Part shown: piece by piece, positions 1,311 to 32,000 of the stretch
Position numbering within the stretch: position 1 is the stretch's first letter
Layout: each line of letters starts with the position of its first letter
Source of the DNA: an uncultured Erysipelotrichaceae bacterium
Lineage (GTDB): Bacteria > Bacillota_I > Bacilli_A > Erysipelotrichales > Erysipelotrichaceae
Direction of reading: 5' to 3'
Assembly: GCA_942492995.1 (NCBI GenBank)
Contig: OW818653.1
Coordinates: 300,001-332,000 of the forward strand
Length of the DNA stretch: 32,000 nt
Notes under the pieces: generated by a model
The model's database searches: none
Told to the model about the DNA's origin: nothing
The model's input: the letters and a program-made list of their open reading frames with translations, nothing else
Made by a program: the position numbers and the translations under genes

Positions 1311-1319
1311 TAAAAGTAC

Positions 1320-1346: not shown

Positions 1347-1370
1347 AACTATAGAAGAACTTTATTTTTT
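1322..1370 (+). terminator. Rho-independent terminator after the PilZ gene
   Basis: 9-bp stem AAGTTCTTC (1322-1330) / GAAGAACTT (1354-1362) with an inner stem ATAGTT/AACTAT (1335-1340 / 1347-1352), followed by TATTTTTT. Confidence 0.6.
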
Positions 1371-1385
1371 AAGAAAGGGGTACAT

Positions 1386-1697: not shown

Positions 1698-2103
1698 TCA
1701 TCAGAAATTAGTTCATTTTTTTGATGAATATACCTCTTTTTATGAATCAATGGTAAATGAAGAAAATAATAAACTAAAAATACTTTTATCGAATGATTTA
1801 AAATCGATTGAAGAAAATATTCTTGTTCAACAAGTAAACGCAAAACGTATGGAAAATATAGAGAATCGTAGAATCGCATTATTTGAAAGTATGAAACTTG
1901 GTCAATATAGTTTCAGACAAATTATTGATCTAGTGGAAGATAAAACAATTCTACAAGCGTATTATTCACGTATTGATTACGCAATTCAACAAATCAAGTA
2001 TATGAATCAGAAGAGTATGGAATTGATACGTTTTAACCTTAAAACAGTAGAAACTAAAAAAACCAATACGGATTATGGATATGATATGAAAGGAGCACGC
2101 TAA
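1690..2103 (+). CDS. flgN: FlgN-family flagellar export chaperone (YvyG-like)
   Basis: All-helical ~137-aa protein in the conserved slot between flgM and flgK. I prefer ATG 1690, which overlaps the flgM stop (ATGATTGA), over the ORF-track start at 1657. Confidence 0.55.
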   Translation: MIDHQKLVHFFDEYTSFYESMVNEENNKLKILLSNDLKSIEENILVQQVNAKRMENIENRRIALFESMKLGQYSFRQIIDLVEDKTILQAYYSRIDYAIQQIKYMNQKSMELIRFNLKTVETKKTNTDYGYDMKGAR

Positions 2104-2105
2104 GT

Positions 2106-3539
2106 ATGCGCTCAACATTCTTAGGTTTAGAAACTGCTCGTAAAGGATTATCCGCTAATCAAAAAGGATTAGATGTGACAGGTCAAAATATTACGAACGT
2201 AAATACTGAAGGTTATACGCGCCAAAGAATTGATACAGTTAGTGTTTCTTCAGTCACCAATAGTCGTATTCGTGAATTAGGTACAAGCTCAGTTGGTCAA
2301 GGAGTACTTGTAAGTGGTATTAGTCAAATAAGAGATAAACAACTAGATATACGCTTTAGATCAGAAATGGGTGAAACAGCGTATTATGATAAAACATTAT
2401 CGATTCTTGATGGAATAGAATCAATCGTTAATGAATTAGGCAGTGGTATTCAACCAATTTTAAGCGATTTTGTAGGTGCACTACAGGATTTGAGTATTAG
2501 TCCAGATCAAGCGACGAACGCAAACATCGTATTATCAAATGCGAAAAGTATGACCCAAATATTACGTCAATATTCATCACAATTTGATCAATTAAAAAGT
2601 CAATATGCGTCAGATTTGATTATTGATGTAGAAAATACGAACACATTAATAAAGAAAATATCAGAATTAAACACCGCAATTTCAAATGAACTCGGTCAAT
2701 CAACATCTGAGCATGATACGAGTAATGTGAACGAATTATTGGACAAACGTAATGTGCTAATGGACCAATTATCACAATATGGGAATATGAGTGTTAGTGA
2801 AAATTTAGATGGGTCTGTAAATATCTCGTTTAATGAACACGTTATCATATCGAATAAATTTGTTGAACAAATTAATATAATGAAGAGTTCTGATAATACA
2901 ATTAATTTAACGTGGCAATCAACTGGAAATTCTATCATTCTAAGTTCAGGTACTCTAAAGGCAAGCCTTGACTTTATGAATGGAGATGGTGGGGAAATCA
3001 ATGGAATTCCATACTATCAGAAACAACTCGATACACTCGCAATCCAATTTGCGGAGATACTAAATACATCACTTATTGATACGAACGATGATTATAAGAA
3101 GCTGATTGAAATCGATGATACCAATCCTGCACACACCATCACAATCCATGATGATTGGATTAATAAAGCTTCATATATTATTGATAATCTTAAGAGTCAA
3201 GGAACACTTGATAATACTCCAATACTAAGTATTATTTCGAAACTTGAAGGTAAGAATACATTAGGTACATTTGTTGGAAGTTTATCGGATTTTGTGACGA
3301 GTTATGTCACAACGCTTGGTCAGGATAAGAGTTACTATGAGTCACGTTATGAGGTGAGTGGTTCAATCACTGATGATCTTCAAAATCGTAGAGATTCTGT
3401 GAGTGCAGTATCACTTGATGAAGAAGGCGCGAATTTAATGTTATACGATAAAGCATATAAAGCAGTTTCTCGCTTAATGACCGCAATGGATGAATTCCTT
3501 GATGTCTTAATCAATAAAACCGGACTTGTTGGACGTTAG
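2106..3539 (+). CDS. flgK: Flagellar hook-associated protein 1 FlgK
   Basis: N-terminus MRSTFLGLETARKGLSANQKGLDVTGQNITNVNTEGYTRQR and C-terminus EEGANLMLYDKAYKAVSRLM are canonical FlgK rod/hook-family termini. AAGGAG RBS. Confidence 0.95.
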   Translation: MRSTFLGLETARKGLSANQKGLDVTGQNITNVNTEGYTRQRIDTVSVSSVTNSRIRELGTSSVGQGVLVSGISQIRDKQLDIRFRSEMGETAYYDKTLSILDGIESIVNELGSGIQPILSDFVGALQDLSISPDQATNANIVLSNAKSMTQILRQYSSQFDQLKSQYASDLIIDVENTNTLIKKISELNTAISNELGQSTSEHDTSNVNELLDKRNVLMDQLSQYGNMSVSENLDGSVNISFNEHVIISNKFVEQINIMKSSDNTINLTWQSTGNSIILSSGTLKASLDFMNGDGGEINGIPYYQKQLDTLAIQFAEILNTSLIDTNDDYKKLIEIDDTNPAHTITIHDDWINKASYIIDNLKSQGTLDNTPILSIISKLEGKNTLGTFVGSLSDFVTSYVTTLGQDKSYYESRYEVSGSITDDLQNRRDSVSAVSLDEEGANLMLYDKAYKAVSRLMTAMDEFLDVLINKTGLVGR

Positions 3540-3551
3540 GAGTAAAATACG

Positions 3552-4523
3552 ATGAGAATTACACAGAAAAATCTTACACGTGCGTATTTAACTGGATTAA
3601 ATCGTAATATAAGTCAGTTATCAAAATCAAATGCTCGACTAACAACAGGTAAACGATTTAATAAAGTAAGTGAAAATGTTACAGATGCACAGAAAGCATT
3701 AAAAGTACGTAATCAGTTAAAACGTAATGAACAATTTATTACGAATATCCAAAGTCTTCAAAATGAAATCAGTGCTCAAGAAACAAGCGCAATGCAGATG
3801 AATGATATCTTACTCAATGTTAAAGAATTGATTGTAAAAGCAGGCAATGAAACAAATGATGCGTCTGATAAAGAAATTATTGCGAACGAGATTGATCAAC
3901 TTAATAAGAGCTTATTACAACTTATTAACGTTAAGACAAGTGATCGTTATACATTTGCAGGTTTAAATAATGATATTCCAATTACTGTAGATAATAGTGG
4001 AACCGTTCTATTTAATGGCGTTGATGTGGATACACTACTTGATAGCGATATAAAGGAAGACGCAGTATTTATCGATATTGGATTAGGCATGCAATTTAAT
4101 GCGAGTAACGTGGATGAAAGTAGTGTTGTACAACTTACAACATCCGCAATTCAAGTATTAGGTTATGGAGTAAATGCGGATGGTGTACCAAACAGTTTAA
4201 TCTCATTCTTAGGGAATGTTGTTAGTGATTTGAAGAATAATGATACATCAAAAATCACACTCTACAATAAGCAATTAACTCAATCGACTGAACGATTATT
4301 AGTACAAGTAACGAATATCGGATCACGTTTTGCGTATCTAGAGAATTCGATCAATCGATTAGAAAATGAAAAGTTAGATTTAACAAGCCAACAGAATTTT
4401 CTAGAATCAATCGATTATGAAGAAGAAACGATTACCAATAAATCGTATGATATGGCATATCAAATAAGCCTTCAATTAGGATCGAAAGTATTGCCATTAT
4501 CCATATTCGATTTTATGCGTTAA
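3552..4523 (+). CDS. flgL: Flagellar hook-associated protein 3 FlgL
   Basis: MRITQKNL...LTTGKRFNKVSENVTDAQKAL is a flagellin-N-like start of the FlgL type (not flagellin: it lacks the LSSGLRINRA...DDAAG signature). 323 aa, directly after flgK. AGGAG RBS. Confidence 0.85.
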   Translation: MRITQKNLTRAYLTGLNRNISQLSKSNARLTTGKRFNKVSENVTDAQKALKVRNQLKRNEQFITNIQSLQNEISAQETSAMQMNDILLNVKELIVKAGNETNDASDKEIIANEIDQLNKSLLQLINVKTSDRYTFAGLNNDIPITVDNSGTVLFNGVDVDTLLDSDIKEDAVFIDIGLGMQFNASNVDESSVVQLTTSAIQVLGYGVNADGVPNSLISFLGNVVSDLKNNDTSKITLYNKQLTQSTERLLVQVTNIGSRFAYLENSINRLENEKLDLTSQQNFLESIDYEEETITNKSYDMAYQISLQLGSKVLPLSIFDFMR

Positions 4524-4524
4524 T

Positions 4525-4968
4525 ATGAACAATCTATTAAAAATCACAACGAAACCGATAAAAATAACGGTACAAGTTGAAAAGGGTAAATTTATTAAAG
4601 TAGAACGTTCTATTCAATTAAAGAATTATAAGAATAAATCAAATGATCTATTAGTCCAATCAAGTAAAAATGAAGTAAATCGTGTAGAAGCATTACCAAA
4701 ACACATCAAACTAAATCAAACGGATAATAATATTCATAAGATTATTACCCAATCTATTACACAAGAAGAATCAAGGAATGTACCGTTTATATCGCATTTT
4801 GATAGTAATCTAAAAATCGAACCGATTCCAAGTGAGATTGAACAAGAGTTGAAATATCAACCAAGTGATTTAGATTTTGTGATTAAACAATACAGTGAGA
4901 TAGAATTCGAATATGTAGGTGAACCCATCTACATGCCATTGAGTGCAAATCCTAATAAGGATAAATAG
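4525..4968 (+). CDS. Hypothetical protein in the conserved flgL-fliW slot (B. subtilis YviE-like position)
   Basis: 147-aa ORF starting 1 nt after the flgL stop. It sits in the same position as yviE in the B. subtilis flgL-yviE-fliW-csrA arrangement. I recognise no motif in it. Confidence 0.5.
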   Translation: MNNLLKITTKPIKITVQVEKGKFIKVERSIQLKNYKNKSNDLLVQSSKNEVNRVEALPKHIKLNQTDNNIHKIITQSITQEESRNVPFISHFDSNLKIEPIPSEIEQELKYQPSDLDFVIKQYSEIEFEYVGEPIYMPLSANPNKDK

Positions 4969-4976
4969 AGGAAATT

Positions 4977-5396
4977 ATGGAAATACAAAGTAAATATTTC
5001 GGAACAATCGATATTCAAGACGAAACAATCATTGAGATGATTCAACCTATTTATGGATTTGAATCATTAAAACGATTTACATTAATATCTGATCAAGAAA
5101 TTGGGACTGATTTACTTTGGTTTCAATCACTTGATCAAGCTGATATTTGTTTTATGGTCGCAAATCCTAATGCGTTTGTGAAAGATTTTAAAATTGAACT
5201 AAATAGTGAAGATATTAATAGTGTTGGTGCTCATGAAATTGATGATATTGATGTATTAAGCATTGTCAGTTTAGGTGAAACATTTGAACAATCCACAATG
5301 AACCTTAAAAGTCCTATCTTACTAAATTCTAAAAATAATAAAGGTGCTCAAGTAATTCTTAATCAAGATTTACCATTTAGAGCAAACTTGGTGTAA
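4977..5396 (+). CDS. fliW: Flagellar assembly factor FliW
   Basis: 139 aa. The start MEIQSKYFGTIDIQDETIIEMIQPIYGFESLKRFTLI is typical of FliW. GAGGAA RBS. Immediately upstream of csrA. Confidence 0.9.
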   Translation: MEIQSKYFGTIDIQDETIIEMIQPIYGFESLKRFTLISDQEIGTDLLWFQSLDQADICFMVANPNAFVKDFKIELNSEDINSVGAHEIDDIDVLSIVSLGETFEQSTMNLKSPILLNSKNNKGAQVILNQDLPFRANLV

Positions 5397-5398
5397 GT

Positions 5399-5638
5399 AT
5401 GTTAATTCTTGCACGTAAAGAAAAAGAATCGATTATCATCGATGGTGGAATTGAAATCATAATACAAGAGATTAGTAAGGATTCAGTTAAAATCGCAATT
5501 ATTGCGCCAAAAGAAGTAAAAGTATTTAGAAAAGAATTAATTGATTCAGTTAAATCAGAGAATATTAATGCGTTAAAACAATTAGAGAAAAATCAAATTA
5601 AGACATACTTTAATCGTGTAAAAAAAGATAATGAATAA
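5399..5638 (+). CDS. csrA: Carbon storage regulator CsrA (FliW-partner type with C-terminal extension)
   Basis: MLILARKEKESIIIDGGIEIIIQEISKDSVKIAIIAPKEVKVFRKEL matches the CsrA fold signature (MLxLxRKxxESIxI...GIxAPKxVxxxRxEx). 79 aa. Confidence 0.9.
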   Translation: MLILARKEKESIIIDGGIEIIIQEISKDSVKIAIIAPKEVKVFRKELIDSVKSENINALKQLEKNQIKTYFNRVKKDNE

Positions 5639-6110
5639 TCAAGAACAAATCTTAAAATTAATCAATGAAAAAAGAGCACATTTAATGGCGTATGAGTCAT
5701 TTACGACATCAATTATAAACAGTGACTTAGATGCGATAAACAATGTGTTAATTCAAAGAGAATCAATCATACAGTCAATTAATTCCATTGATCAATTAAT
5801 CAAAGATATGATTGAACAATCTATTGATAAAACAGTAATCAATGCGATATTTCAACATAAAATTCATATGGGTGAAGTACCAGATAAGTACTATTCATTA
5901 TATGAAGGTATAGAATCTATCGTCGATTCATTGGAAAACATACATGTTTTAGATACATTGATTTATACAAGAATTGGTCAATTAAAAGAAGAAATATTAT
6001 TGAATATTAAGCAAACAAATAATGTATCAAAAATACAAAAGTATTTTGATACATATGAAACAGAGTTAGATTCGATCAATGATTTAACATCTCTTGCGAA
6101 GAAAGTATAG
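5631..6110 (+). CDS. Uncharacterised all-helical protein, possibly a FliT/FlgN-like chaperone
   Basis: 159-aa ORF whose ATG overlaps the csrA stop (ATGAATAA). The sequence is rich in heptad-like helical segments. It sits directly upstream of fliD. The functional call is positional inference only. Confidence 0.35.
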   Translation: MNNQEQILKLINEKRAHLMAYESFTTSIINSDLDAINNVLIQRESIIQSINSIDQLIKDMIEQSIDKTVINAIFQHKIHMGEVPDKYYSLYEGIESIVDSLENIHVLDTLIYTRIGQLKEEILLNIKQTNNVSKIQKYFDTYETELDSINDLTSLAKKV

Positions 6111-6119
6111 GTGAAATAA

Positions 6120-7913
6120 ATGGTATCCATAAACAATAGTAATAACTCTAGATCATATGGTTCAACAGGTATTTTAGGTTTATCATCAGGTATTGATTCT
6201 GAGAGTGTCATTGAAGGAATGTTGTCAGGGACACAATCAAAAATTGATAAGCAACTCGGTCTTAAGCAACAAACTCTTTGGAAACAAGAACTCTATCGAG
6301 GAATTATCGGTGATATACAGAGTTTACAACGTAAGTTCTTTGATACATTAAATCCTCAATCCAATTTATTATCTAACTCATTCTTTTCCAATCAAACTGT
6401 CACTTCTTCCTCATCAAATGTACAAGCGACTTCGAATCAAAGAACTGCTTCAGAATTAACGATTGATTCAATAACTCAACTTGCGACAGGTTCAAAGATA
6501 ATCAGTCAATCGAGTGTATCAAATGTGATTCAATGTAATGTAAATAGTTCACTAATTACAGGGTCAAGTTCAATAAATGTATCTCTCGATGGTGTTAGTA
6601 AATCAATAAACTTACATGGATTAGATAATATAGAAGTCTTAGATAATCTACAAATTGATTTAAATAAAGCATTTGGTACGGGTGTCAATGTCGCAGTGGA
6701 TGGCACAATCACTACCAATGGTTCAAGACAAATAAGTATTTCTGGAAGTGTAGAGAATCTTGCATGTTTGGGGTTTACCGCAAGTATTTCTAATCGTGTT
6801 GATTTGAATACGCCATTAAGTAATTTAAATCTTAATCAGGATTTACTTGGTACAAGTTTCAAATTCTCAATTAATGGTACGAACTTTGAATTCGATGAGA
6901 CACAAAGTTTAGCGGAAGTAGTAGATACGATAAATAAGAGTAATGCGAATGTCACATTGAGCTATTCTAACGTAAGTGATGTATTTACGCTTACTTCAAA
7001 AACACTTGGTCAAGGGGTTCAAATCGATTGTAGTGAGAGTGAAGGAAATTTACTCAACGCATTATTAAAAGTAGATCAACCGGATTATCAAACAATAGAT
7101 GGTAAAAACGCTATCTTAAGTGTTAATGGCACAACAATTGAACGTAATACGAATAGCTTTGAAGTGAATCAATTTAAACTAAACTTAGTTTCAGAAACCA
7201 ATACTAAAACAGTATTAAGCGCAAAAAACAACACAACACAAGTCGTCGATGGACTGACAAAATTTGTGGAGGAATACAATAAACTTATTGATAAAGTTTA
7301 TACACTCACAACAGAAAAATCAGAATATCGTGAATTTAGTCCATTAACTGATGAACAGAAAAAAGATATGTCTGAATCAGAAGTCGAACTTTGGGAGAAG
7401 AAAGCAAAGACTGGATTAGTACGAAGTGATACTAACTTAGTTTCATTACTATCCGAACTTAGACAAGTATTATTTACGCATCCTACAGGAAGTTCACTAA
7501 GTTTAAGTGATATGGGTATAGCGTCTTCAAGTTTTGGGGATCGTGGTAAATTAACCATTGATCCAATAAAACTCAATCAAGCACTTGAAACGAGAATGAA
7601 TGAAGTCCAATCATTATTTACGGATAAGGAAAATGGAATTGCGGTTAAATTCAATGCCATTTTAAATAAAAACGCGCAATCAAGTCTAAGTAATCCAGGA
7701 CGATTAGTCGTAATGGCGGGTATTGCCAATACGACAAGTGATGTGAAAAACACATTAACTGAACGTATTAAATCAATAGAACTTACGATTGAGAATTTCA
7801 AACGTATGTATGAATCTCAAAAATCAAGATACTGGAAACAATTCTCACAATTAGAAACCGCAATGAGTAAAATGAACTCACAAAGTTCATGGTTAACCCA
7901 ACAACTCGGTTAA
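6120..7913 (+). CDS. fliD: Flagellar filament capping protein FliD
   Basis: 597 aa. N-terminus GILGLSSGIDSESVIEGMLSGTQSKIDKQLGLKQQTLWKQELY and C-terminus KRMYESQKSRYWKQFSQLETAMSKMNSQSSWLTQQL are the conserved FliD N and C regions. Confidence 0.9.
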   Translation: MVSINNSNNSRSYGSTGILGLSSGIDSESVIEGMLSGTQSKIDKQLGLKQQTLWKQELYRGIIGDIQSLQRKFFDTLNPQSNLLSNSFFSNQTVTSSSSNVQATSNQRTASELTIDSITQLATGSKIISQSSVSNVIQCNVNSSLITGSSSINVSLDGVSKSINLHGLDNIEVLDNLQIDLNKAFGTGVNVAVDGTITTNGSRQISISGSVENLACLGFTASISNRVDLNTPLSNLNLNQDLLGTSFKFSINGTNFEFDETQSLAEVVDTINKSNANVTLSYSNVSDVFTLTSKTLGQGVQIDCSESEGNLLNALLKVDQPDYQTIDGKNAILSVNGTTIERNTNSFEVNQFKLNLVSETNTKTVLSAKNNTTQVVDGLTKFVEEYNKLIDKVYTLTTEKSEYREFSPLTDEQKKDMSESEVELWEKKAKTGLVRSDTNLVSLLSELRQVLFTHPTGSSLSLSDMGIASSSFGDRGKLTIDPIKLNQALETRMNEVQSLFTDKENGIAVKFNAILNKNAQSSLSNPGRLVVMAGIANTTSDVKNTLTERIKSIELTIENFKRMYESQKSRYWKQFSQLETAMSKMNSQSSWLTQQLG

Positions 7914-7921
7914 GGAAAAAT

Positions 7922-8293
7922 ATGAACAATCCATACGCAAGTTATAAAACACAATCAATTCAAACAATGACTCCAGGTGAAATGGTTGTCGCATTATATG
8001 AAGGATTAATCAAACAATTAAATCTAGCCATTCTCTATATCGAAGAAAAAAATATAGCGGAAGGTCATACGAGCTTAATGAAAAGCCAAGATATTATTAC
8101 GTATTTAATTTCCACATTAAATCCAGATATAGAGATTAGTAAAACAATCCTTCCATATTACGAACTATTCCAAAGACAAATAATGGATGCGAATCTTAAA
8201 AAAGATGTACAAACAATTAAGTCAGTATTACCATTAATTGAAGAATTTAAACTAATATTTTCGCAAGCTGATCGTTTAAACCGAATAAAATAA
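7922..8293 (+). CDS. fliS: Flagellar export chaperone FliS
   Basis: ATG 7922 with AAGGAAAAA upstream (the ORF-track start 7889 lies inside fliD). MNNPYASYKTQSIQTMTPGEMVVALYEGLIKQLN is a typical FliS start. Follows fliD. Confidence 0.85.
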   Translation: MNNPYASYKTQSIQTMTPGEMVVALYEGLIKQLNLAILYIEEKNIAEGHTSLMKSQDIITYLISTLNPDIEISKTILPYYELFQRQIMDANLKKDVQTIKSVLPLIEEFKLIFSQADRLNRIK

Positions 8294-8314
8294 CGTCACA
8301 TTTCTATGACGTTA
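8284..8314 (-). terminator. Intrinsic terminator serving the minus-strand hydrolase gene
   Basis: 8-bp stem TAACGTCA / TGACGTTA (8291-8298 / 8307-8314). On the minus strand it is followed by TTTTATT. It overlaps the fliS stop codon. Confidence 0.45.
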
Positions 8315-8336
8315 GATAATATATGTATTACATCGT

Positions 8337-8368
8337 AACTCTTAGTTCTCTAAGAGTTTTTTATTTAT
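8337..8368 (+). terminator. Rho-independent terminator of the flagellar operon
   Basis: Stem AACTCTTAG (8337-8345) / CTAAGAGTT (8350-8358), loop TTCT, then TTTTATTT. Confidence 0.7.
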
Positions 8369-9084
8369 TGTTCAATTTTAATTAACTCATTTATAAAGAA
8401 ATCATGAATCATTTTTAGTACATCTTTATTGATCGGATATTCATCTAATATGCGATGTGGAACATTCTTTAATATAAATAATCGTTTATTTTGATGATAA
8501 ATAGATTCATAAGCATAATCACTACTTCTTAATGGAATTGTTTCGTCACTTGTGCCATGAAAAATAAGAACAGGACAATCGACATGTTTTATCGAATCTT
8601 TACATTTAGACACAATGTCTTTAAATGTATTTGTGAATGAATCAGGTAAAGGGGGATAATCATTTGATTGTATTTCTGGTCGTTTGATTATTTGGCGTGC
8701 AACACCTTCAACCGTGTCAATAATTGCTTTAATCGTGATGTACTCAAACGCAGGTGCTAATAAGACTAATCGTTCAACGTTGAACTTAGATGCTAAGTAT
8801 GACGCAATAACACCACCCATAGAGAAACCAATGAGTAATATCTTTTTATTCTCGCTTATTAGCTTGATTAAAGGCTGTTCTACACGATTTAACCATTGAT
8901 CAGGATTAATATCATCAAACTGCGTTTGATCAAAAATTTCCGGTATTACAACGGTATATCCTAATGTCTCGAAATATTCTTTTAGGACATTATATTCATG
9001 CGTTCTTCTAACGCCAAACCCATGTACACAATATAAAATAGGCTTCTCTTCTTCGGGATTAAAAAATCGTTTTAACCAGTTCAT
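8365..9084 (-). CDS. Alpha/beta hydrolase (carboxylesterase/lipase-like)
   Basis: 239 aa. Nucleophile elbow GFSMGG, HGF oxyanion region (LYCVHGFG), late HGTSDETIP and a C-terminal His. AAGAGG RBS. Confidence 0.8.
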   Translation of the reverse strand: MNWLKRFFNPEEEKPILYCVHGFGVRRTHEYNVLKEYFETLGYTVVIPEIFDQTQFDDINPDQWLNRVEQPLIKLISENKKILLIGFSMGGVIASYLASKFNVERLVLLAPAFEYITIKAIIDTVEGVARQIIKRPEIQSNDYPPLPDSFTNTFKDIVSKCKDSIKHVDCPVLIFHGTSDETIPLRSSDYAYESIYHQNKRLFILKNVPHRILDEYPINKDVLKMIHDFFINELIKIEQ

Positions 9085-9162
9085 ACAAATTCCTCTTATA
9101 ACATACTATAGTCTAGATATAAAAAATTTGCATCATGATATAATAATTAAAAAGGTGAAACT

Positions 9163-10032
9163 ATGAAAAAAATTGCGTGGATTGGGACCGGAGTCATGGG
9201 TAATGCGATGGTTGGACATCTTATCGATGCTGGTTATGAATGTTCACTCTATAATCGATCAAGCGAAAAGATGATGAACTTTGTCGGTAGAGCTTTAATT
9301 ACTGAATCAATTAAAGAAGTCGTTAAAGATGCGGATATTATATTCACAATGGTAGGTTATCCAAAAGATGTGTATGAAGTATATTGTGCAGAAAACGGGA
9401 TATTTAATCATTGTAAAAAAGGTGTTTTATGTGTTGATATGACCACATCTGCACCAAGTTTGGCAGAGGAATTATATGAAATCGCTAAGACTAAAAATAT
9501 ACGCATTATCGATGCCCCAGTATCGGGTGGTGATATTGGCGCAAAGAATGCGACATTATCGATTATGGTTGGTGGAGATAAAGCAGACTTTGATGAAGCA
9601 AGTGAATACTTTAACTATATGGGTAAACAAATCAGTTATATTGGCGCAAGTGGATCTGGTCAACACTGTAAAATGGCAAATCAAATCTTAGTGGCAGGGA
9701 ATATCGCGGCTGTGACTGAAGCACTTCTTTACATGGATTCAAAGAAACTTGATCAAACACTTGTTTTACAAGCGATTTCAGGTGGTGCAGCGGGTTCTTG
9801 GCAACTCACCAATAATGGCCCAAAAATTATAAAAGAGGATTATAATCCTGGTTTTTATATTCATCATTTCGTAAAAGATCTTAAACTAATTTGTGAAGAG
9901 GCAGAAAAAAACAATCTTGATCTAACGATTGTTAAGGAAGTTACGAAGAAATATGAACGATTATTAGAAAAAGGAAATGGATACTTAGGAACTCAAGCTC
10001 TTATAAAAGATTATCATGAATCAGGGAAGTAA
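9163..10032 (+). CDS. NAD(P)-dependent oxidoreductase, 3-hydroxyisobutyrate dehydrogenase (HIBADH/GarR) family
   Basis: N-terminal Rossmann motif IAWIGTGVMGNAMVGHL, DAPVSGG, and the catalytic-region K in GSGQHCKMANQI. 289 aa. Confidence 0.8.
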   Translation: MKKIAWIGTGVMGNAMVGHLIDAGYECSLYNRSSEKMMNFVGRALITESIKEVVKDADIIFTMVGYPKDVYEVYCAENGIFNHCKKGVLCVDMTTSAPSLAEELYEIAKTKNIRIIDAPVSGGDIGAKNATLSIMVGGDKADFDEASEYFNYMGKQISYIGASGSGQHCKMANQILVAGNIAAVTEALLYMDSKKLDQTLVLQAISGGAAGSWQLTNNGPKIIKEDYNPGFYIHHFVKDLKLICEEAEKNNLDLTIVKEVTKKYERLLEKGNGYLGTQALIKDYHESGK

Positions 10033-10956
10033 CTTATCCAGTAATTTCTGATTAAACGTAGTTGAAGTTTCATGTAATAAATGTCCTTCATCAAACAGCT
10101 CAACTGAATTCACCTCAACATATTTCTTAATCATCTCAATCGTATCGACACTTACCCAAGTGTCTTTTTTACCCCAAAATAAGTTTATTGGAATATCTTT
10201 CTGTGTGAATTCATCAATTAAAAAATTGTCGGATGTCTTCACAAAATCAATCAATGCGTTAATTGTACCTTTAGTTTTAAATGGAGCTAAATAAGCCTCA
10301 ACCATTTCATTACTTGGTTTCTGAGCTGAAGCACTTTCTAGAAATGATGTAAATTGTGTTTCATTAATCAAGAAATAACGTAACCCAACTTTTAGCCATT
10401 GTCCAATTGGTGTATAGAATAACCATTTATTTGAATTGGTATCCTCTGTAATAGCTCCCGCAATTAAATTAATCGAACTGACCTTATTCGGTTTCTGTTC
10501 TGCCATCGCTAAAATTGTAGAACCACCCATTGAATGACCAACTAAATGCCAAGCATCTATTAATTTATTCTCATCATCATAGTAATCAAGAAATTCCAAT
10601 ATTAAACGTGCTCGATTTACTTGTGAATGATCAATCCCACTCTCTTTTGAACTATACCCAAATGCAGGTAAATCGATTGATATAACCTGATAACCTTGTT
10701 GGGCAAAAAATGGCGCATTGTTTCTAAAGCTTGCGGAAGATGCCCCAAGTCCATGAATAAACACTATTTTACCTTTGTACACATTTTCATTTGGATACAC
10801 TTGAGCATGTAAACGGATATTATCTGAGCTGGTGAAAAAGACAGAGTTCGGATAAGGTGATTCTGGAATGGACTGATTAAATTCAGTTGGAATAAAATAA
10901 GGCAAAATTAAAAGGATGAATAGAATGATTAAAATAACACGATACGATTTCTTCAT
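10021..10956 (-). CDS. Membrane-anchored alpha/beta hydrolase
   Basis: N-terminal hydrophobic helix (VILIILFILLILPYF), HGLGAS, nucleophile elbow GHSMGG. 311 aa. Its 3' end overlaps the convergent dehydrogenase gene by 12 nt. No obvious SD. Confidence 0.75.
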   Translation of the reverse strand: MKKSYRVILIILFILLILPYFIPTEFNQSIPESPYPNSVFFTSSDNIRLHAQVYPNENVYKGKIVFIHGLGASSASFRNNAPFFAQQGYQVISIDLPAFGYSSKESGIDHSQVNRARLILEFLDYYDDENKLIDAWHLVGHSMGGSTILAMAEQKPNKVSSINLIAGAITEDTNSNKWLFYTPIGQWLKVGLRYFLINETQFTSFLESASAQKPSNEMVEAYLAPFKTKGTINALIDFVKTSDNFLIDEFTQKDIPINLFWGKKDTWVSVDTIEMIKKYVEVNSVELFDEGHLLHETSTTFNQKLLDKLLP

Positions 10957-11080
10957 ATTTTAGTTATGAAGCATTTTTATAAGAAACGCAATTAAAATGC
11001 GATTTAATATATTAATACGGTAAAAATGTTATAGATAGTCGTTAAACAAACTATCTCAATTAAGTGTTAAGATAATAATA

Positions 11081-12403
11081 ATGAAACAATTAACACACAA
11101 TGATCTATCAGCACTTAGTGAATTCACAAAATTGAATCCATTCCTTTTTAATAAAGATGGACTTATTAATCATGAAAATACGAATGTTTTTGAAATAAAA
11201 CGCTTAAATGAATGTGTTAAATGGAATGAACTCTATGATATATTCTGTTTAAATCCTAATTCACAAATAGAGATAGAAATTACCGAAAATAAGAATAATC
11301 CAGTTTGGGTTTTAATTATCGGACAAAGTGTTACATATGAGAATCAAATTGTCATATTAGCCTACTTCTATAATATTAGTAATATGAAACGAAAGAGTTT
11401 TGAACTTGAACGTTCAACGCGTTTACGTGCTTTAATGTTAGAAGTTACGCAATCAATATTTATTGCGGACACAATCGAAGAAATATTTGATTTGAGCTTA
11501 GCGAATTCAATAAAAGCACTTGAAAAATCAAACTATGGATCAATTATGGTAAAACGTGACCAGTTCTTTAAAGCTGTTTCATATATTGGATTCCCAGATG
11601 AAATTGTAGATTTTAATTTACCATGTGAAGAGAGTTTTTTAGCGAAGAACACAGAAGGCAAAATGGATCGTTTTGTGTGTTTAAATGAAGATCAATTAGG
11701 GTCATTAACGAACTTTAAAATCGATGATACAGAGAATAAAACGCAGATACGATCCACATTAACAGGTCCAATTACGATTCAAGGAAAATTGTTTGGGATA
11801 ATTAACATCGATTCATTCGAAAATAATGCGTTTGATGATTCAGATGTTCAAACGATGGAGTTTATTCGTAATAATATTGAAATCGCAATTACCAATCATC
11901 AACTTTATCAAGAAAAACTTGTATTATCTCGTCATGATAATTTAACAGGATTATACAATCGTCATTATTTTGAGGAACAATTCGAAATAAACCGTAAACG
12001 TGCGAATCGTTATAATGAAACATTCTGTTTAGTATTGTTTGATGTGGATCATTTTAAATCTGTAAATGATATTTATGGACATTATGTTGGTGATCAAGTT
12101 TTGAAATTTATCTCAAAGGAACTCTTAGATAACCAAAGAGAAAGCGATATTTTAGCTCGTTTTGGTGGGGATGAGTTTATTGGAATACTATATGAAACAA
12201 GTCCAAGTGAATTAAGTAAAAAGTATGTTAGTTTAAATCAATATCTCGTAAATCAAAAGATTAAAATTGATCAAACGCTAATTGCCAGTTCATTTAGTTT
12301 TGGGATTGCGCAATATCCAAATGATGGGGCTAATTTAGATGATTTAGTAAAAGTCGCAGATTTTGAAATGTACAAGAATAAACGTTCAAGACGTAAAGAT
12401 TAA
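11081..12403 (+). CDS. GAF-domain diguanylate cyclase (GGDEF) with intact active site and I-site
   Basis: The C-terminal domain has HDNLTGLYNRHYF, DVDHFKSVND, RFGGDEFIG (GGDEF) and RESD five residues upstream (RxxD I-site). The middle ~160 aa is GAF-like (GPITIQGKLFGIINIDS). No TM segment. No SD before the ATG. Confidence 0.85.
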   Translation: MKQLTHNDLSALSEFTKLNPFLFNKDGLINHENTNVFEIKRLNECVKWNELYDIFCLNPNSQIEIEITENKNNPVWVLIIGQSVTYENQIVILAYFYNISNMKRKSFELERSTRLRALMLEVTQSIFIADTIEEIFDLSLANSIKALEKSNYGSIMVKRDQFFKAVSYIGFPDEIVDFNLPCEESFLAKNTEGKMDRFVCLNEDQLGSLTNFKIDDTENKTQIRSTLTGPITIQGKLFGIINIDSFENNAFDDSDVQTMEFIRNNIEIAITNHQLYQEKLVLSRHDNLTGLYNRHYFEEQFEINRKRANRYNETFCLVLFDVDHFKSVNDIYGHYVGDQVLKFISKELLDNQRESDILARFGGDEFIGILYETSPSELSKKYVSLNQYLVNQKIKIDQTLIASSFSFGIAQYPNDGANLDDLVKVADFEMYKNKRSRRKD

Positions 12404-17330: not shown

Positions 17331-17372
17331 TCTGAAATCGTTTACACTAGAGATATAATGTTAGGAGATTCT

Positions 17373-18338
17373 ATGCGAAAATTTATCATTGATACAGATA
17401 CAGGGAGTGATGATGCGATAGCACTTATCATGGCTTTAAGTGACCCTAATTGTGAAGTATGCGCAATCACAACAGTTATGGGAAATGTTTCGCTTGAATT
17501 GGCGACACGAAACGCAAGAATTGCGATGGAAATAGCAGAACAACGAGATATTCCAATCTATCAAGGACTACATCGTCCGCTTGTGAGAACCATTCTCAAT
17601 GCGACACATGTTCATGGAACGGATGGATTAAGCCATGTAAAAGTGGAAGAACCAACCATAAAAGTTCAAGAAAAACATGCCGTAGACGCAATTATTGAAT
17701 GGGTTGATAAACTAAAAAATGAATGTGAAGTTATTATGTTAGGTCCTTTAACAAATCTTGCGTTGGCAATTAGAAAAGCACCTGAAGTTATGAAACAAAT
17801 TAAACATGTCTATATCATGGGTGGAGCACAACTTGGCTATGCAGGTGAAACAGAAGTTGCGGAGTTTAACATACTTGCGGATCCAGAAGCTGCACATATT
17901 GTGTTTAGATCTGGGTTAAATATGACGATGGTACCACTTGAAGTTTGTTTAAATGGTGATGGCAGAGATGGAGCTGAAACAGTATTATCACTTGATGATG
18001 TGAATAAGTTATTATCAATTAACACAAAGAAGGCAAAGTTCTGTGTTGATTGTTCCACAAGTTTAGTGGAATACCACAAACAATTATTGGGGGATTTTGG
18101 ATTAGAACTACCAGATCCAACGACGATTGCAGTCGCATTAAGACCAGAATTGATTTTACATCGCTATAAAGCACAAGTAGATGTAGATTTATCCAATTCA
18201 TTATCCTATGGTCAAACGGTTGTGAATACTAAAGGTGGAACAGTTCTAGAACATCAAATTTATCAAGCAAATATGGACATTATTACTGCGATTGATGGTA
18301 AAGGTTTTAAAGAATACCTAATGGAGTGTGTAAAATAA
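17373..18338 (+). CDS. Nucleoside hydrolase (IUNH family), paralog 1
   Basis: N-terminal metal-binding signature IIDTDTGSDDAIAL. AGGAG RBS before ATG 17373 (the ORF-track start 17358 is less likely). ~321 aa. Confidence 0.85.
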   Translation: MRKFIIDTDTGSDDAIALIMALSDPNCEVCAITTVMGNVSLELATRNARIAMEIAEQRDIPIYQGLHRPLVRTILNATHVHGTDGLSHVKVEEPTIKVQEKHAVDAIIEWVDKLKNECEVIMLGPLTNLALAIRKAPEVMKQIKHVYIMGGAQLGYAGETEVAEFNILADPEAAHIVFRSGLNMTMVPLEVCLNGDGRDGAETVLSLDDVNKLLSINTKKAKFCVDCSTSLVEYHKQLLGDFGLELPDPTTIAVALRPELILHRYKAQVDVDLSNSLSYGQTVVNTKGGTVLEHQIYQANMDIITAIDGKGFKEYLMECVK

Positions 18339-19270
18339 TGGAAAAAAGAAACTTTATTATTGATACCGATACTGCATCAGACGATGCGGTCGCTATCGTT
18401 ATGGCACTTAGAAGTGAATCAATCCATATTGAAGCTATTACATGTACGGCCGGTAATTTATCACTATCTAAAACAACCCGTAATGCGCGGTTATCAGTTG
18501 AATTTGCGAATACCTATGTTCCACATATCTATGCTGGGGCAGATCGTCCACTTGTTCGAGATTTAGTTGTCGGTGAGAATGTTCATGGTAAAGATGGACT
18601 GGGTGATATGAATTATCTTGAACCGATGGTATCACTAGATACAGGTCATGCGGTCGATATTATCCTTGATTACGCTAGAAATTATCGAAATATCGGATTA
18701 ATCACAATTGGTCCTCTTACAAATGTCGCAATGGCAATCTTACAAGATCCAAAAGCGATGTTAAACATCAGAGAAATCATCGCAATGGGTGGTCAATATA
18801 AAATGACAAACGGTTGTACAGCGAATGCCGAATTTAACATTTGGGTTGATGGTGAAGCAGCTAAAATTGTACTTGAAAGTGGTATTCCAATAACCTTGGT
18901 CCCATTAGATATGTGTTATGGAGAAGCAGAGATTAATGAAGACGATCGTTCTTATCTAAAATCACTTAAAACGAATCGAGGACATTTCTTCGTTGATTGT
19001 AATCGAAGATTACTTGAATATAATCTCAGAAGTTATAATAAAAACATTATTTCGATGCCAGATCCAACTGCTATGGCAATAGCGATTGATCCAAGCATTA
19101 TTCTTGAATCTAAAGATTTATATACTAGAATTGAACTATATAGCACATTAAGTTATGGTCAATTAATCTATGATTATATGAACATACATAAACAAAAACC
19201 AAATGTAAGACTTGTCACTAAAATTGATGTAAAGAAATTTAAAGAACTTGTGTTTAAATCAGCACAATAG
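18338..19270 (+). CDS. Nucleoside hydrolase (IUNH family), paralog 2
   Basis: IIDTDTASDDAVAIV signature. The ATG overlaps the paralog 1 stop (TAATG at 18336-18340). By eye roughly 35-40 percent identical to paralog 1. Confidence 0.85.
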   Translation: MEKRNFIIDTDTASDDAVAIVMALRSESIHIEAITCTAGNLSLSKTTRNARLSVEFANTYVPHIYAGADRPLVRDLVVGENVHGKDGLGDMNYLEPMVSLDTGHAVDIILDYARNYRNIGLITIGPLTNVAMAILQDPKAMLNIREIIAMGGQYKMTNGCTANAEFNIWVDGEAAKIVLESGIPITLVPLDMCYGEAEINEDDRSYLKSLKTNRGHFFVDCNRRLLEYNLRSYNKNIISMPDPTAMAIAIDPSIILESKDLYTRIELYSTLSYGQLIYDYMNIHKQKPNVRLVTKIDVKKFKELVFKSAQ

Positions 19271-19686: not shown

Positions 19687-19707
19687 AAAACGACGGAAGT
19701 CGTTTTT
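19686..19707. terminator. Bidirectional intrinsic terminator
   Basis: AAAAACGAC-GGAA-GTCGTTTTT palindrome between convergent genes, with an A-run and a T-run on either side. Confidence 0.7.
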
Positions 19708-20269
19708 ATGCGAATAAATGTGTAAGTAGAATTCTAAGTCCCATAATCACAAGCACTAATCCACCAAATATCTCAGCTTTATGATCTAACCATAAAGCAC
19801 TTTTCTTACCAATCAATACACCTAAACTCGATAATACGAACGTTATAAGTCCGATTATAAGGGATGTTTTAATAATTGATTGATCATGAAATGAGAAACT
19901 AACGCCAACGGCCAATGCGTCAATACTTGTCGCAATTGATATATATAATAATGTTTTTAATGATAATTTTGGTTCTATTTCGCAATTAATCGCATCTGTT
20001 TTTAATCCATCTATAATCATTTTTACACCGATGATTGATAATAGGATAAATGAGATCCAATGATCATAATCAACAATATATTGATTAAATCCGCGGCCTA
20101 ATGTATACCCTAACCAAATCATAAACCCTTGGAAGAATCCAAATGATAAACCAATGATGAGTGAGATTCGAGTTCTAGAATCTTTTGTACATAAACCTTT
20201 AACTAATGCGACGGTAAAGGCATCCATAGAAACACCAATTCCAACGAGTAAGATACTTGATAATTCCAT
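19706..20269 (-). CDS. mntP: Manganese efflux pump MntP
   Basis: ATG 20269 with AAGAGG RBS (the longer ORF-track start 20320 is unlikely). Two repeats with the conserved acidic motif (GIGVSMDAFTVA and ATSIDALAVGVS). ~187 aa, 6 TM helices. Confidence 0.85.
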   Translation of the reverse strand: MELSSILLVGIGVSMDAFTVALVKGLCTKDSRTRISLIIGLSFGFFQGFMIWLGYTLGRGFNQYIVDYDHWISFILLSIIGVKMIIDGLKTDAINCEIEPKLSLKTLLYISIATSIDALAVGVSFSFHDQSIIKTSLIIGLITFVLSSLGVLIGKKSALWLDHKAEIFGGLVLVIMGLRILLTHLFA

Positions 20270-20323
20270 AGAGACCTCTTTAAAGTGGATTGTCATTATA
20301 TATGACGATTGTAAAGCCACTTA

Positions 20324-20352
20324 ATTTTAATTAATCCAAAAGTTACTGTCAA
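20324..20352 (-). promoter_or_regulatory. Sigma-A promoter of mntP
   Basis: On the minus strand: TTGACA (20352-20347), 17-nt spacer, TAAAAT (20329-20324). Confidence 0.5.
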
Positions 20353-20424
20353 GCATGAAAGGGAAATGCTAGCTTAATAATGTGTTTGACTCTATAATAA
20401 AATTAATATAAATGGGAGGATTTT

Positions 20425-29337: not shown

Positions 29338-30600
29338 ATGAACAAGAAACTATACAATAAAGATTATTTATTACTCTTACAAGGAAGCGCATTTTCAGTT
29401 TTTGGTGATATTTTATATAGTATCGCAATATCTGTATGGGTTTATGAGAAAACACATTCCACATCCCTTATGGGTATTATGGCATCCATCAGTTTATTTG
29501 TGACAATGTTTGGATCACCAATCGCTGGGGCGTTTGTGGATCGTGGTAATCGTAAATGGATTATCATTATGACAGATTTTATCCGTGCCATCTTGATGTT
29601 TGGGGTTGCGTATTTATCGTTCCAGGAGAATCTAAGTGTATTTATCGTTTTATTTGCGGCAATCGTTGCGGCATTCTGTCATTTATTTTTCGTGCCTGCA
29701 TCAATGACTGTAATGGTTGATTTAATCCCTGAAGATAAAATCATGAAGGGGCAATCACTACATCAAGGCATTGTAAGTTTATTAAACTTTGCGGGTAAAG
29801 CGTTAAGTGGCGTTCTCATTATTGTGTTTGGTGTATCTTGGATGATATTGATTAATGCGATTTCATTCTTACTATCCGCATTTTCTGAACTATTCATAAA
29901 TGTTCCTAAAACCATTAAAGCTCAAGATACTTTCACATTTAAGAAAGTCTTCGTAGATTTAAAAAAAGGTGCGCTTGAAACATTCAATGATAAGATATTA
30001 AGAAAACTCATTTTCTTAGCATTAAGCATCAATTTATTTAGTTCTGGTGTCTATCATTTATTCTTACCATTTACCGATCAAAAAGGTTTAGATATTGTCC
30101 ATTATGGCTATCTAATGTCGGTTTTATCGTTAGCGGGTATTGTCGGAATGGCGATTACCGCAAGTGTCGATTTCAAACCTAAGCAACAACACCAAATCAT
30201 GGTTTATGGATTTCTAATCGGTATGAGCATTGAAGCAATTGCCTATCTAAGTTCTGGATTCTATACATTAAGTATTTTGTTCTTCTTGGGTAATGTATTG
30301 GGTACAATTGCGAACGCATCTTTAAACGCAGTATTGATACTCGCAATACCAAAAGAGAAACGAGCATTAGTCATTGGGTTTGTGATGGCTGGAAGTTCAG
30401 GTGGAATAGCGTTATCATCATTAGGTTATGGATTATTAGCTGAATTTATCCCGTTAAGTATCTTAGGCGCAAGTGGTATGGTAATCGCATTAGTTCCGAT
30501 GATGTTGCTGGGATTTGATCGAAGAGTTAAAGCATTATTTCTTAAACAAGAAATAGTTAGTGAATCATTGGTTGAACAACTAAGCCAATCAAGCAATTAA
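29338..30600 (+). CDS. MFS transporter
   Basis: 420 aa with about 12 hydrophobic segments. The N-terminus LLLLQGSAFSVFGDILYSIAISVWVYEKT is typical of DHA3/EntS-like MFS proteins. No SD; preceded by a very AT-rich region. Confidence 0.75.
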   Translation: MNKKLYNKDYLLLLQGSAFSVFGDILYSIAISVWVYEKTHSTSLMGIMASISLFVTMFGSPIAGAFVDRGNRKWIIIMTDFIRAILMFGVAYLSFQENLSVFIVLFAAIVAAFCHLFFVPASMTVMVDLIPEDKIMKGQSLHQGIVSLLNFAGKALSGVLIIVFGVSWMILINAISFLLSAFSELFINVPKTIKAQDTFTFKKVFVDLKKGALETFNDKILRKLIFLALSINLFSSGVYHLFLPFTDQKGLDIVHYGYLMSVLSLAGIVGMAITASVDFKPKQQHQIMVYGFLIGMSIEAIAYLSSGFYTLSILFFLGNVLGTIANASLNAVLILAIPKEKRALVIGFVMAGSSGGIALSSLGYGLLAEFIPLSILGASGMVIALVPMMLLGFDRRVKALFLKQEIVSESLVEQLSQSSN

Positions 30601-30611
30601 TAAGAGATTTG

Positions 30612-30640
30612 TTGACACGATAATAGGGTTAAGCTAAAAT
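30612..30640 (+). promoter_or_regulatory. Sigma-A promoter of the antiporter leader
   Basis: TTGACA (30612-30617), exactly 17-nt spacer, TAAAAT (30635-30640). Confidence 0.6.
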
Positions 30641-30645
30641 TCTAT

Positions 30646-30726
30646 TGGGAATGAATGTCTCCCATCGAAAGAAAACCGCGTAAAGCTGATGACTTCTGTT
30701 TTTTTAACAGAGCATCAGCTTTTTTT
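30646..30726 (+). promoter_or_regulatory. Fluoride (crcB-motif)-like riboswitch, variant, with terminator expression platform
   Basis: P1 is UGGGA/UCCCA (30646-30650 / 30660-30664) with a loop AUGAAUGUC. The linker ends in AAAC (30673-30676). A mini-hairpin GC-GUAAA-GC is at 30678-30686. UGAUGACUUCU is at 30687-30697. Pseudoknot: G30653-A-A-(U)-G-U30658 with A30692-C-U-U-C30696. The terminator is AAAGCTGATG..TTCTGTT / AACAGAG.CATCAGCTTT (30682-30722) followed by a T-run. Matched from memory to the T. petrophila and B. cereus fluoride riboswitch sequences. Confidence 0.5.
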
Positions 30727-30737
30727 GGAGGAAAACT

Positions 30738-31925
30738 ATGTTAGTAAGTTTATCGCTCATGTTGTTACTGGGATTTGCATTAAGTGGAATATTTAAAATG
30801 CTTAATTTACCAGGTTTAATTGGTATGATCCTTGCTGGTATTATCTTAGGACCCTATAGTTTAAATCTAATCAGTCCATCTCTTTTAACAATCGCAGCTG
30901 AATTAAGACAAATTGCACTTATTGTAATTCTTCTTAGAGCAGGATTAAGTTTAGACCTTAAAGACTTATCAAAAGTTGGAAGACCTGCTTTTCTAATGAG
31001 TTTTCTACCTGCACTTTTTGAAATGGGAATGATTATACTAATTGCGCCAAAACTATTAAATATAACAATATTAGATGCGGCAATATTAGGTGCTGTTCTT
31101 GCAGCAGTTTCTCCAGCTGTTGTTGTACCTAGGATGTTACATCTTATGCAAGAAGGATATGGACATAAAAATAAGATACCTCAACTCATTATGGCTGGCG
31201 CAAGTCTCGATGATATCTTTGTCATAATACTTTTTACTTCATTTATTACCTTAAGACAAGGTCAATCAATCGATTTATCACTGTTTACTTCATTACCACT
31301 TTCAATCATTACAGGTATTGGATTTGGGTTTCTTATAGGTTACTTATTTGTCTTAATATTCAAAAAGATACACATGCGCGATACCATAAAAGTTTTACTC
31401 TTACTTAGTATTTCATTCTTAGTGTTAGGATTGGAAAAAACCATCTCAAATGTAATCCCATTCTCAGCACTACTTGCGGTTATGTCAATGGGCATAAGTA
31501 TTCTTCGTTTCTATCCTGTTCTTGCCCAACGCATCACTTCGAAATTCTCAAAGATTTGGGTCGCATCTGAAGTGTTTCTATTTATCTTAGTTGGTGCAGT
31601 CGTAAATCTAGCTAGTCTTCAATCGTATGTTTGGTTAATTATAATCGTTCTTATATTAGGACTAATCTCTCGTTTTATTGGTGTACAAACATGTTTAATA
31701 AAATCGAATTTTACATCAAAAGAACGATTATTTACGGGTATTGCATATATTCCTAAGGCAACTGTTCAAGCAGCGATTGGATCTATTCCGCTTACTCTAG
31801 GATTTAGTTCAGGAAATATCATTCTAAGTTCTGCAGTATTAGCGATATTAATCACTGCACCACTTGGCGCAATTGGAATCGATTTATTAAGCTCTAAATT
31901 ACTTACTAAAGACAAAAAGTATTAG
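30738..31925 (+). CDS. Cation:proton antiporter (Na+/H+ exchanger family, CPA-type)
   Basis: 395 aa, polytopic. The N-terminus LPGLIGMILAGIILGP and the AGASLDDIFVI segment (adjacent DD pair) are typical of the Na_H_exchanger family. GGAGG RBS. Confidence 0.8.
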   Translation: MLVSLSLMLLLGFALSGIFKMLNLPGLIGMILAGIILGPYSLNLISPSLLTIAAELRQIALIVILLRAGLSLDLKDLSKVGRPAFLMSFLPALFEMGMIILIAPKLLNITILDAAILGAVLAAVSPAVVVPRMLHLMQEGYGHKNKIPQLIMAGASLDDIFVIILFTSFITLRQGQSIDLSLFTSLPLSIITGIGFGFLIGYLFVLIFKKIHMRDTIKVLLLLSISFLVLGLEKTISNVIPFSALLAVMSMGISILRFYPVLAQRITSKFSKIWVASEVFLFILVGAVVNLASLQSYVWLIIIVLILGLISRFIGVQTCLIKSNFTSKERLFTGIAYIPKATVQAAIGSIPLTLGFSSGNIILSSAVLAILITAPLGAIGIDLLSSKLLTKDKKY

Positions 31926-31963
31926 ATATAATGTTGTACAATATTACCATAAAGAGGTACGTT

Positions 31964-32000
31964 ATGAACTCAATCTTAGAAAGCTTATATCACCGTAAAT
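31964..32000 (+). CDS. Start of an unidentified CDS (runs off the window)
   Basis: ATG 31964 preceded by AAAGAGG. Only 12 codons are visible (MNSILESLYHRK). Confidence 0.3.
   Translation, partial: MNSILESLYHRK

Follow-up and report, generated by a model that had tools for sequence, protein, structure and literature searches.

A structured RNA leader upstream of a gene predicted to encode a cation/proton antiporter was examined in a 32,000-nucleotide (nt) stretch of DNA from an uncultured Erysipelotrichaceae bacterium (contig OW818653.1; the whole stretch is called the window here). The leader is an ordinary member of the crcB-motif fluoride riboswitch family. It is very probably a genuine fluoride riboswitch that serves as a transcriptional ON switch for the adjacent antiporter gene, which is NHA2-like, and its aptamer would be expected, from its sequence, to bind fluoride through a Mg2+ cluster. 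A first-pass annotation of the same DNA had read the leader as resembling fluoride (crcB-motif) riboswitches, and every part that it listed (promoter, P1 hairpin, linker, small hairpin, 3' core, terminator, GGAGG, and ATG) was recovered at the positions now collected in Table 1.

When both strands of the whole window (64 kb in total) were scanned with the 4227 families of Rfam, one match was obtained, to RF01734 (Fluoride) at positions 30638-30705 of the forward strand (37.1 bits; gathering score, 34; E = 5.9e-7; aligned over model positions 1 to 64 of 64), and this match was still the only one at E ≤ 0.5. A permissive scan of positions 30500-30800 at E ≤ 10 added only matches to microRNA, drum small RNA, and small nucleolar RNA families, all far below their thresholds. 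No match to the Na+ (DUF1646) or Li+ (nhaA-I/II) riboswitch families, which are presumably included in Rfam 15, was found at E ≤ 10 in positions 30500-30800 or at E ≤ 0.5 in the whole window. The competition between RF01734 and the Na+ and Li+ models that the first-pass annotation had proposed was therefore decided for the fluoride model, the only one that matched. All positions conserved in the fluoride consensus were present, including AUG, AAAC, GCUGAUGA, and a U located 8 nt past the linchpin A. The second stem lay between AAAC and (C)UGAUG, as it does in the family.

The same element was found upstream of orthologous genes. Searches with the antiporter protein as the query yielded 80 loci in species-representative genomes (51 to 94% identity), with hosts that included an Erysipelotrichaceae metagenome-assembled genome (MAG; 94%), many Bacillota, Acholeplasma, Bacteroidota, Treponema, and others. 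Of the first 20 loci, 15 had an above-threshold RF01734 match (34.8 to 52.8 bits) immediately 5' of the antiporter gene, and relatives with canonical loops and scores of up to 52.8 bits preceded the same gene family. A custom covariance model, built from 14 of the Rfam matches with P1 and P3 only and with the pseudoknot excluded, identified exactly one aptamer in each of 57 of the 80 loci, upstream of the gene and on its strand, and produced no match elsewhere in the 555 kb of homologue-locus sequence. The 3' end of the aptamer was 31 to 169 nt from the start of the mapped protein match in these 57 loci, that start lying 11 to 21 codons inside the gene in a few of them. Homologues share their start methionine with the window open reading frame (ORF) at position 30738. 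The aptamer was almost unchanged in the close relatives L001, L002, and L143 (94%, 80%, and 82% protein identity, respectively). Between the window and L002, the aptamer and terminator were nearly identical and the stretch from the -35 element to P1 had diverged at about half its positions. The two aptamer differences between them were both in the 5' strand of the pseudoknot, one an A-to-G change in the third pair (A-U to G.U, which still pairs) and the other in the bulged base (C in L002).

Covariation was counted over 14 pairs in P1, P3, and the pseudoknot, using an alignment (A2) of 55 distinct sequences. In these sequences, which are related to one another, 94.8% of cells were paired, and double-sided changes were present in 8 of the 14 pairs (40 cells). 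None of 500 shuffles matched the observed percentage paired, number of pairs with double changes, number of double-change cells, or covariation score; the count of further pair types was matched by 76 of the 500. Sliding the 3' partners by 1 to 3 columns lowered pairing to 39 to 70%. P1 was 98.2% paired. The proximal pairs of P3 were near-invariant (GC in 53 of 54 sequences and CG in 54 of 54), and its distal pairs had 14 and 9 double changes, with no pairing in 5 and 15 of the 54 sequences. The pseudoknot helix, which was not in the search model, showed double changes in four of its six pairs, with strands such as GGAACU/AGUUCC in Bacteroidota and GAAGU/ACUUC in Bacillota. The first-pass annotation had claimed a loop-tail pseudoknot and had proposed testing it and P1 for covariation in orthologous leaders; the claimed pairs form, both helices covary, and a sixth pair, C30659-G30691, was added. 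The remaining pairs are G30653-C30696, A30654-U30695, A30655-U30694, G30657-C30693, and U30658-A30692.

The aptamer is 51 nt in length. Its P1 hairpin can be extended by U30646-A30664, and the P1 loop (AUGAAUGUC, 9 nt, 30651-30659) begins with the conserved AUG. A30651, U30652, and G30653 are presumably the AUG that lines the Mg2+/F- pocket of the solved structures, a role that Ren et al. reportedly described in 2012. Within the linker, a 2-base-pair (bp) mini-hairpin is possible (U30665-A30672 and C30666-G30671 with a GAAA loop) and is absent from the predicted minimum free energy fold. The stem called P3 in Rfam is called stem 2 or P2 in structural papers. The Thermotoga petrophila construct has a pseudoknot without a bulge and a stem 2 longer than that of the window. 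Both aptamers have two stems and a six-pair pseudoknot (PMC11586693), and the T. petrophila crystal construct (4ENC) lacks an expression platform. The reverse Watson-Crick A6.U38 and reverse Hoogsteen A40.U48 pairs of that structure (PMC11586693) correspond, with the same spacing, to A30651/U30687 and A30689/U30697 in the window.

The Bacillus cereus crcB riboswitch, a transcriptional ON switch and a model system for nuclear magnetic resonance and kinetic studies, is similar to the window leader in its P1 with an AUG-initiated loop, its small second stem, and its pseudoknot to the 3' tail. There, A5/U35 occupy the positions of A30651/U30687, and the linchpin A37.U45 has the 8-nt spacing of A30689/U30697 (PMC8004769). 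The position that the first-pass annotation had proposed for the linchpin U, 8 nt past A30689, is thus that of both the B. cereus and T. petrophila aptamers. By mapping of positions onto these systems (PMC8004769, PMC11586693), U30687 would be the reverse Watson-Crick partner of A30651, and A30689 and U30697 would be the linchpin A and U; the nucleotides themselves are present at the positions and spacing expected for the class, and their pairing is predicted from position. The window differs from B. cereus crcB in its 9-nt P1 loop (8 nt in the Rfam consensus), which leaves one pseudoknot base bulged, in its second stem of two pairs rather than the four of the consensus, in its 14-nt linker with a vestigial hairpin, and in having an antiporter gene rather than that of a Fluc channel.

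A 17-bp terminator with a U-run had been described downstream of the aptamer, and the hairpin at 30682-30722 had a predicted folding energy (ViennaRNA) of -19.9 kcal/mol (z = -5.5), with 0 of 200 shuffles as stable. A consensus terminator scan with fixed stem, loop, and G-C criteria reported none in positions 30400-32000, probably because the stem contains two unpaired bases and the U-run lies partly within the stem. The terminator 5' arm (30682-30700) overlaps the aptamer at 30682-30697 and takes up the 3' strand of P3, the UGAUG core (including U30687 and A30689), the 3' strand of the pseudoknot, and U30697, which pairs with A30709 in the terminator. The 5' arm of the terminator in B. cereus likewise shares bases with the 3' strand of the pseudoknot and captures the linchpin U, with U45 leaving A37 to pair with terminator A65 (PMC8004769), for which U30697-A30709 is the window counterpart. 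At least 43 of the 58 relatives had a comparable hairpin in which four or more bases of the 3' strand of the pseudoknot were paired and which was followed by a U-rich tail. The aptamer fold and the terminator are predicted from these folds to be mutually exclusive, in agreement with the ON-switch logic that the first-pass annotation had drawn from the sharing of the pseudoknot 3' strand with the terminator 5' arm. Overlapping terminators are frequent in crcB-motif RNAs and imply ON switches (PMC2864571).

The promoter had 11 of 12 consensus matches in a promoter scan, and -10-like hexamers were seen by eye a few nucleotides 5' of the GGGA of P1 in relatives. The predicted start of transcription, at about 30646-30648, is at the base of P1. 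When fluoride is scarce, the 17-bp terminator and its U7 run would form, and transcription would end before the Shine-Dalgarno sequence. Capture of Mg2+-bound fluoride would hold the pseudoknot (30653-30659 with 30691-30696), the small second stem, and the A30689.U30697 linchpin in place, and because the nucleotides so held are those that the terminator 5' arm requires, RNA polymerase would read through and the antiporter would be made. Such a leader would operate as a fluoride-ON transcriptional switch.

Table 1. Predicted features of the riboswitch-antiporter unit in the window
Feature	Positions	Strand	Details
Sigma-70-type promoter	30612..30640	+	-35 TTGACA (30612-30617), 17-nt spacer, -10 TAAAAT (30635-30640)
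P1 hairpin	30647..30663	+	GGGA (30647-30650) with UCCC (30660-30663); Rfam alignment and folds
Pseudoknot 5' strand, GAA(U)GUC	30653..30659	+	U30656 bulged at position 4; six of six pairs form
P1-to-P3 linker, AUCGAAAGAAAACC	30664..30677	+	14 nt, ends in AAAACC, includes conserved AAAC(C)
Second stem (Rfam P3)	30678..30686	+	G30678-C30686 and C30679-G30685, loop GUAAA
Conserved 3' core, UGAUGACUUCU	30687..30697	+	UGAUGA-CUUC-U; Rfam alignment
Pseudoknot 3' strand	30691..30696	+	GACUUC, within the 3' core
Intrinsic terminator	30682..30726	+	17-pair hairpin (30682-30722), U-run U7 (30720-30726); energy folds
Shine-Dalgarno GGAGG	30727..30731	+	6-nt spacer, then ATG (30738-30740)
Regulated gene, 395-amino-acid CPA-superfamily cation/proton antiporter, NHA2/SLC9B-like	30738..31925	+	Pfam and PDB matches

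The regulated gene had been called a Na+/H+-exchanger-family gene, and its product matched Pfam PF00999 (Na_H_Exchanger) with an E value of 1.3e-46, scoring below the NCBIfam cutoffs for the K+/H+ antiporter equivalogs. Its closest solved relative was mammalian NHA2/SLC9B2 (7b4l, E = 1e-37), and matches to the MjNhaP1 and NapA structures were far weaker (E of about 1e-6). The SLDD segment of the antiporter aligned to SFDD of NHA2, and in this DD motif D158 was conserved in 81 of 81 homologues and D159 in 80 of 81. The AVSPAxxVP segment, the DD motif, and PKATVQAA were essentially invariant in the same 81 homologues. On this sequence evidence, the riboswitch-tied antiporters of Bacillota, Mollicutes-like lineages, and Bacteroidota appear to make up a single NHA2/SLC9B-like clade with an essentially invariant DD motif. 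The absence of crcB and eriC-F from the window, as first claimed, was borne out in that no CRCB or CLC domain was found by Pfam in the 34 principal window ORFs of at least 90 amino acids. In 57 of 80 loci, the switch was followed first by the antiporter gene, with no adjacent exporter or conserved partner. The ORFs that followed it were unrelated across the 80 loci, all-against-all BLAST producing only small groups from closely related loci, and no conserved downstream partner, especially crcB or CLC-F, was found across them.

The 2010 description of the crcB motif placed it upstream of, among other genes, those for K+ and Cl- transport (PMC2864571). Antiporters were said in the first-pass annotation to be listed among fluoride-riboswitch-associated genes, and PMC11139923 (citing Baker et al. 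2012) ranks Na+/H+ antiporters as the second most common such class, after exporters. The same source ties riboswitch-linked antiporters to pH homeostasis under weak-acid fluoride accumulation, and published opinion holds that such antiporters counter the fluoride-linked disturbance of pH and proton-motive force. By exchanging outward-moving cations for inward-moving H+, an antiporter would reduce the pH gradient behind the accumulation of fluoride as a weak acid (hydrogen fluoride [HF]). In Clostridioides difficile, a fluoride riboswitch precedes a CLC-type gene and an NhaP-type antiporter gene (CD0656-CD0657; PMC11477304), whereas in the window the antiporter gene is first, no exporter is adjacent, and the antiporter has a DD motif and is of the NHA2/SLC9B-like type, not one annotated as NhaP type. 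The pairing of a fluoride riboswitch with an antiporter gene is already in the literature (PMC2864571, PMC11139923), any Rfam-based pipeline would label the element a fluoride riboswitch, and the assignment has little value beyond correct annotation. The NHA2-like clade offers a clean target for probing the antiporter role in fluoride stress.

The first-pass annotation had called the leader a variant on account of four deviations: a bulged U in the pseudoknot, a P3 of only 2 bp, a long linker, and UGU in place of UAC at the 3' end. All four are present, but they are ordinary in the antiporter-linked subgroup, and the label was overstated; on sequence comparison, the deviations appear to be common natural variation in that subgroup, and none departs from the family. 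The P1 loop was 9 nt in 52 of 58 copies (8 nt in the Rfam consensus). With a 9-nt loop, the pseudoknot 5' strand has 7 nt rather than 6, so that an extra base is the rule in the subgroup. The extra base was usually at position 5 or 6; it was at position 4 in the window, L001, L002, and L057. A metagenome scan for the bulge-at-4 form matched at least 120 stretches, and 80 loci were fetched, among which at least 45 aptamers with this form were distinct. Six pairs with a bulge at position 4 were formed in 79 of the 80 fetched loci, and the bulged base was U, C, G, or A among the metagenome matches listed. The third pseudoknot pair was A-U in 68 of these loci, U.G in 8, U-A in 2, G.U in 1, and a U.U mismatch in 1, so this pair, which lies beside the bulge, appears to covary in the metagenome copies. 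An antiporter homologue was found downstream in 66 of the 80 fetched loci, 73 of which had more than 300 nt of downstream sequence.

Two-pair second stems were also present in L051, L057, and L019 and seem to recur independently in other lineages. A hairpin of at least 3 bp was found in 43 of 50 distinct linkers of relatives, with covarying stems such as UAGC/GCUA, UGGC/GCCA, and CGGA/UCCG, in a stretch that the Rfam consensus treats as an insertion. In the window, L001, L002, and L143, this hairpin was reduced to UCGAAAGA (UC-GAAA-GA), and the "long linker" of the window thus looks like a shrunken version of the hairpin of its relatives. Most antiporter-linked aptamers have a P1 loop longer by one base and an additional hairpin in the linker, features not shown in the Rfam consensus. 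The 3'-end triplets UGC and UGU were the commonest in the subgroup and are part of the terminator stem.

Several observations weigh against the assignment of a fluoride-ON switch. The RF01734 score exceeded the gathering threshold by only about 3 bits. The counts for P1 and P3 are biased, since the model fitted alignment A2 to both of these helices; the pseudoknot had no place in that model. Taken by itself, the nested portion of the aptamer folded at -6.9 kcal/mol (z = +0.4), no better than shuffles, and the second stem has only two Watson-Crick pairs. With a nested fold this weak, the aptamer must depend on tertiary contacts and ligand to fold, and the terminator should win unless ligand locks the tertiary fold. 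The aptamer was absent from 23 of the 80 homologue loci, so that the antiporter is not obligatorily fluoride regulated. A limited literature search found no experimental study of a Na+/H+ antiporter linked to a fluoride riboswitch.

The riboswitch-less homologues were scattered through a neighbor-joining tree (a rough one, without support values), and a separate clade of such homologues was rejected on this basis. Their scatter suggests repeated loss within a riboswitch-antiporter association that is probably old. L026 and L035 were without an aptamer, and the near-identical L018 and L025 each had one. In L034 (Sedimentibacter, 2838-2925), P1 was gone and the aptamer was reduced to its 3' half (GCUGAUGACUUCUGC, 2883-2897), present together with the terminator; this element looks like a decaying riboswitch. 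L019 (2824-2944) carried an insertion of about 70 nt between P1 and the AACCGC core; its aptamer scored 37.5 bits with the custom model and was below the Rfam gathering threshold.

Decay was also considered for the window leader, in the form of a riboswitch whose ligand binding has been crippled by the two-pair stem and displaced bulge and which is now a constitutive attenuator or leaky. The near-threshold score and weak nested fold fit this account, and decay does occur in the gene family (the L034 remnant and the L026 and L035 losses). It is nevertheless improbable, in view of the near-constancy of the aptamer in L001, L002, and L143, the restriction of both window-L002 differences to the pseudoknot 5' strand, where they amount to A-U becoming G.U and a change of the bulged base, the compensatory change among the distinct metagenome aptamers with a bulge at position 4, and the independent two-pair second stems of L051, L057, and L019. 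A constitutive terminator of -19.9 kcal/mol would, moreover, silence a gene that is under clear purifying selection. About equally improbable is a functionally distinct lineage sub-variant, defined by the position-4 bulge, two-pair P3, and near-hairpinless linker, that might differ markedly in the kinetics of folding or in its threshold for fluoride, or in the most extreme case in ligand, and that is possibly tuned to an NHA2-like antiporter that collapses the HF-concentrating pH gradient rather than to generic pH homeostasis.

Sensing of another small ion had been left open in the first-pass annotation. On this reading, the leader would respond to an ion such as Na+ or Li+, and its likeness to fluoride aptamers would be superficial or its pocket retuned. 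Li+ (nhaA-I/II) and Na+ (DUF1646) riboswitches do switch on cation/proton antiporter genes, their typical targets (PMC9646797, PMC9337991), and the lack of a fluoride exporter in the window, the shifted bulge, and the minimal second stem would all be in keeping with such a function. These ion-sensing RNAs, however, belong to a ligand class and fold unrelated to the crcB motif and have no sequence or structure match to the leader; no riboswitch family but RF01734 was found at E ≤ 10 in 30500-30800, the conserved fluoride-consensus positions are complete, and the canonical-loop relatives precede the same gene family. This alternative is accordingly very unlikely, more so than decay. Least credible, and refuted for practical purposes by the Rfam E value, the conservation, and the covariation, is a chance resemblance in which only a promoter, a terminator or attenuator hairpin, and a ribosome-binding site are present and no RNA senses a ligand. 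The aptamer is short and AT rich and has a modest covariance score, as chance would allow, but an E value of 5.9e-7 over 64 kb, conservation in 57 of 80 genomes and across phyla, and covariation above all 500 shuffles and all register slides argue strongly against it.

A gene of the nitroreductase family (PF00881, E = 1e-22) begins 39 nt past the antiporter stop codon (window positions 31965-32000; L001 positions 4137-4928). The gap between the two genes is without an obvious terminator. The nitroreductase gene, whose conservation does not extend to L002, may be transcribed together with the antiporter gene under the control of fluoride; the antiporter unit is monocistronic or at most bicistronic. 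Upstream, L002 contains a T-box leader (RF00230, 100.6 bits) and a gene for the tryptophan transporter TrpP (positions 1430-2276) between a hexapeptide-transferase gene and the riboswitch unit. The corresponding interval of the window (29338-30600) contains a major facilitator superfamily transporter gene, and the hexapeptide-transferase gene is conserved. The riboswitch-antiporter unit thus appears to be a self-contained cassette in a variable neighborhood.

Other genes of the window were annotated in passing. A late flagellar set was found at positions 295-12403, with ORFs predicted to encode a ComFB-domain protein, PilZ, FlgM, FlgN, FlgK, a flagellin-N-domain protein, FliW, FliD, and FliS, and a GGDEF diguanylate cyclase gene was located near it. 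Erysipelotrichaceae are usually described as nonmotile, and such a set would not be expected in a genome with an Erysipelotrichaceae MAG as its nearest match. Genes for MntP-family manganese efflux proteins often carry a yybP-ykoY (Mn2+) riboswitch; one gene of this family, on the reverse strand, together with its upstream region occupies positions 19706-20424, with no yybP-ykoY match upstream even at E ≤ 0.5. Two tandem genes annotated as inosine-uridine nucleoside hydrolases (PF01156, E = 1e-83 and 7e-79) were found at positions 17358-19270 and overlap by 13 nt.

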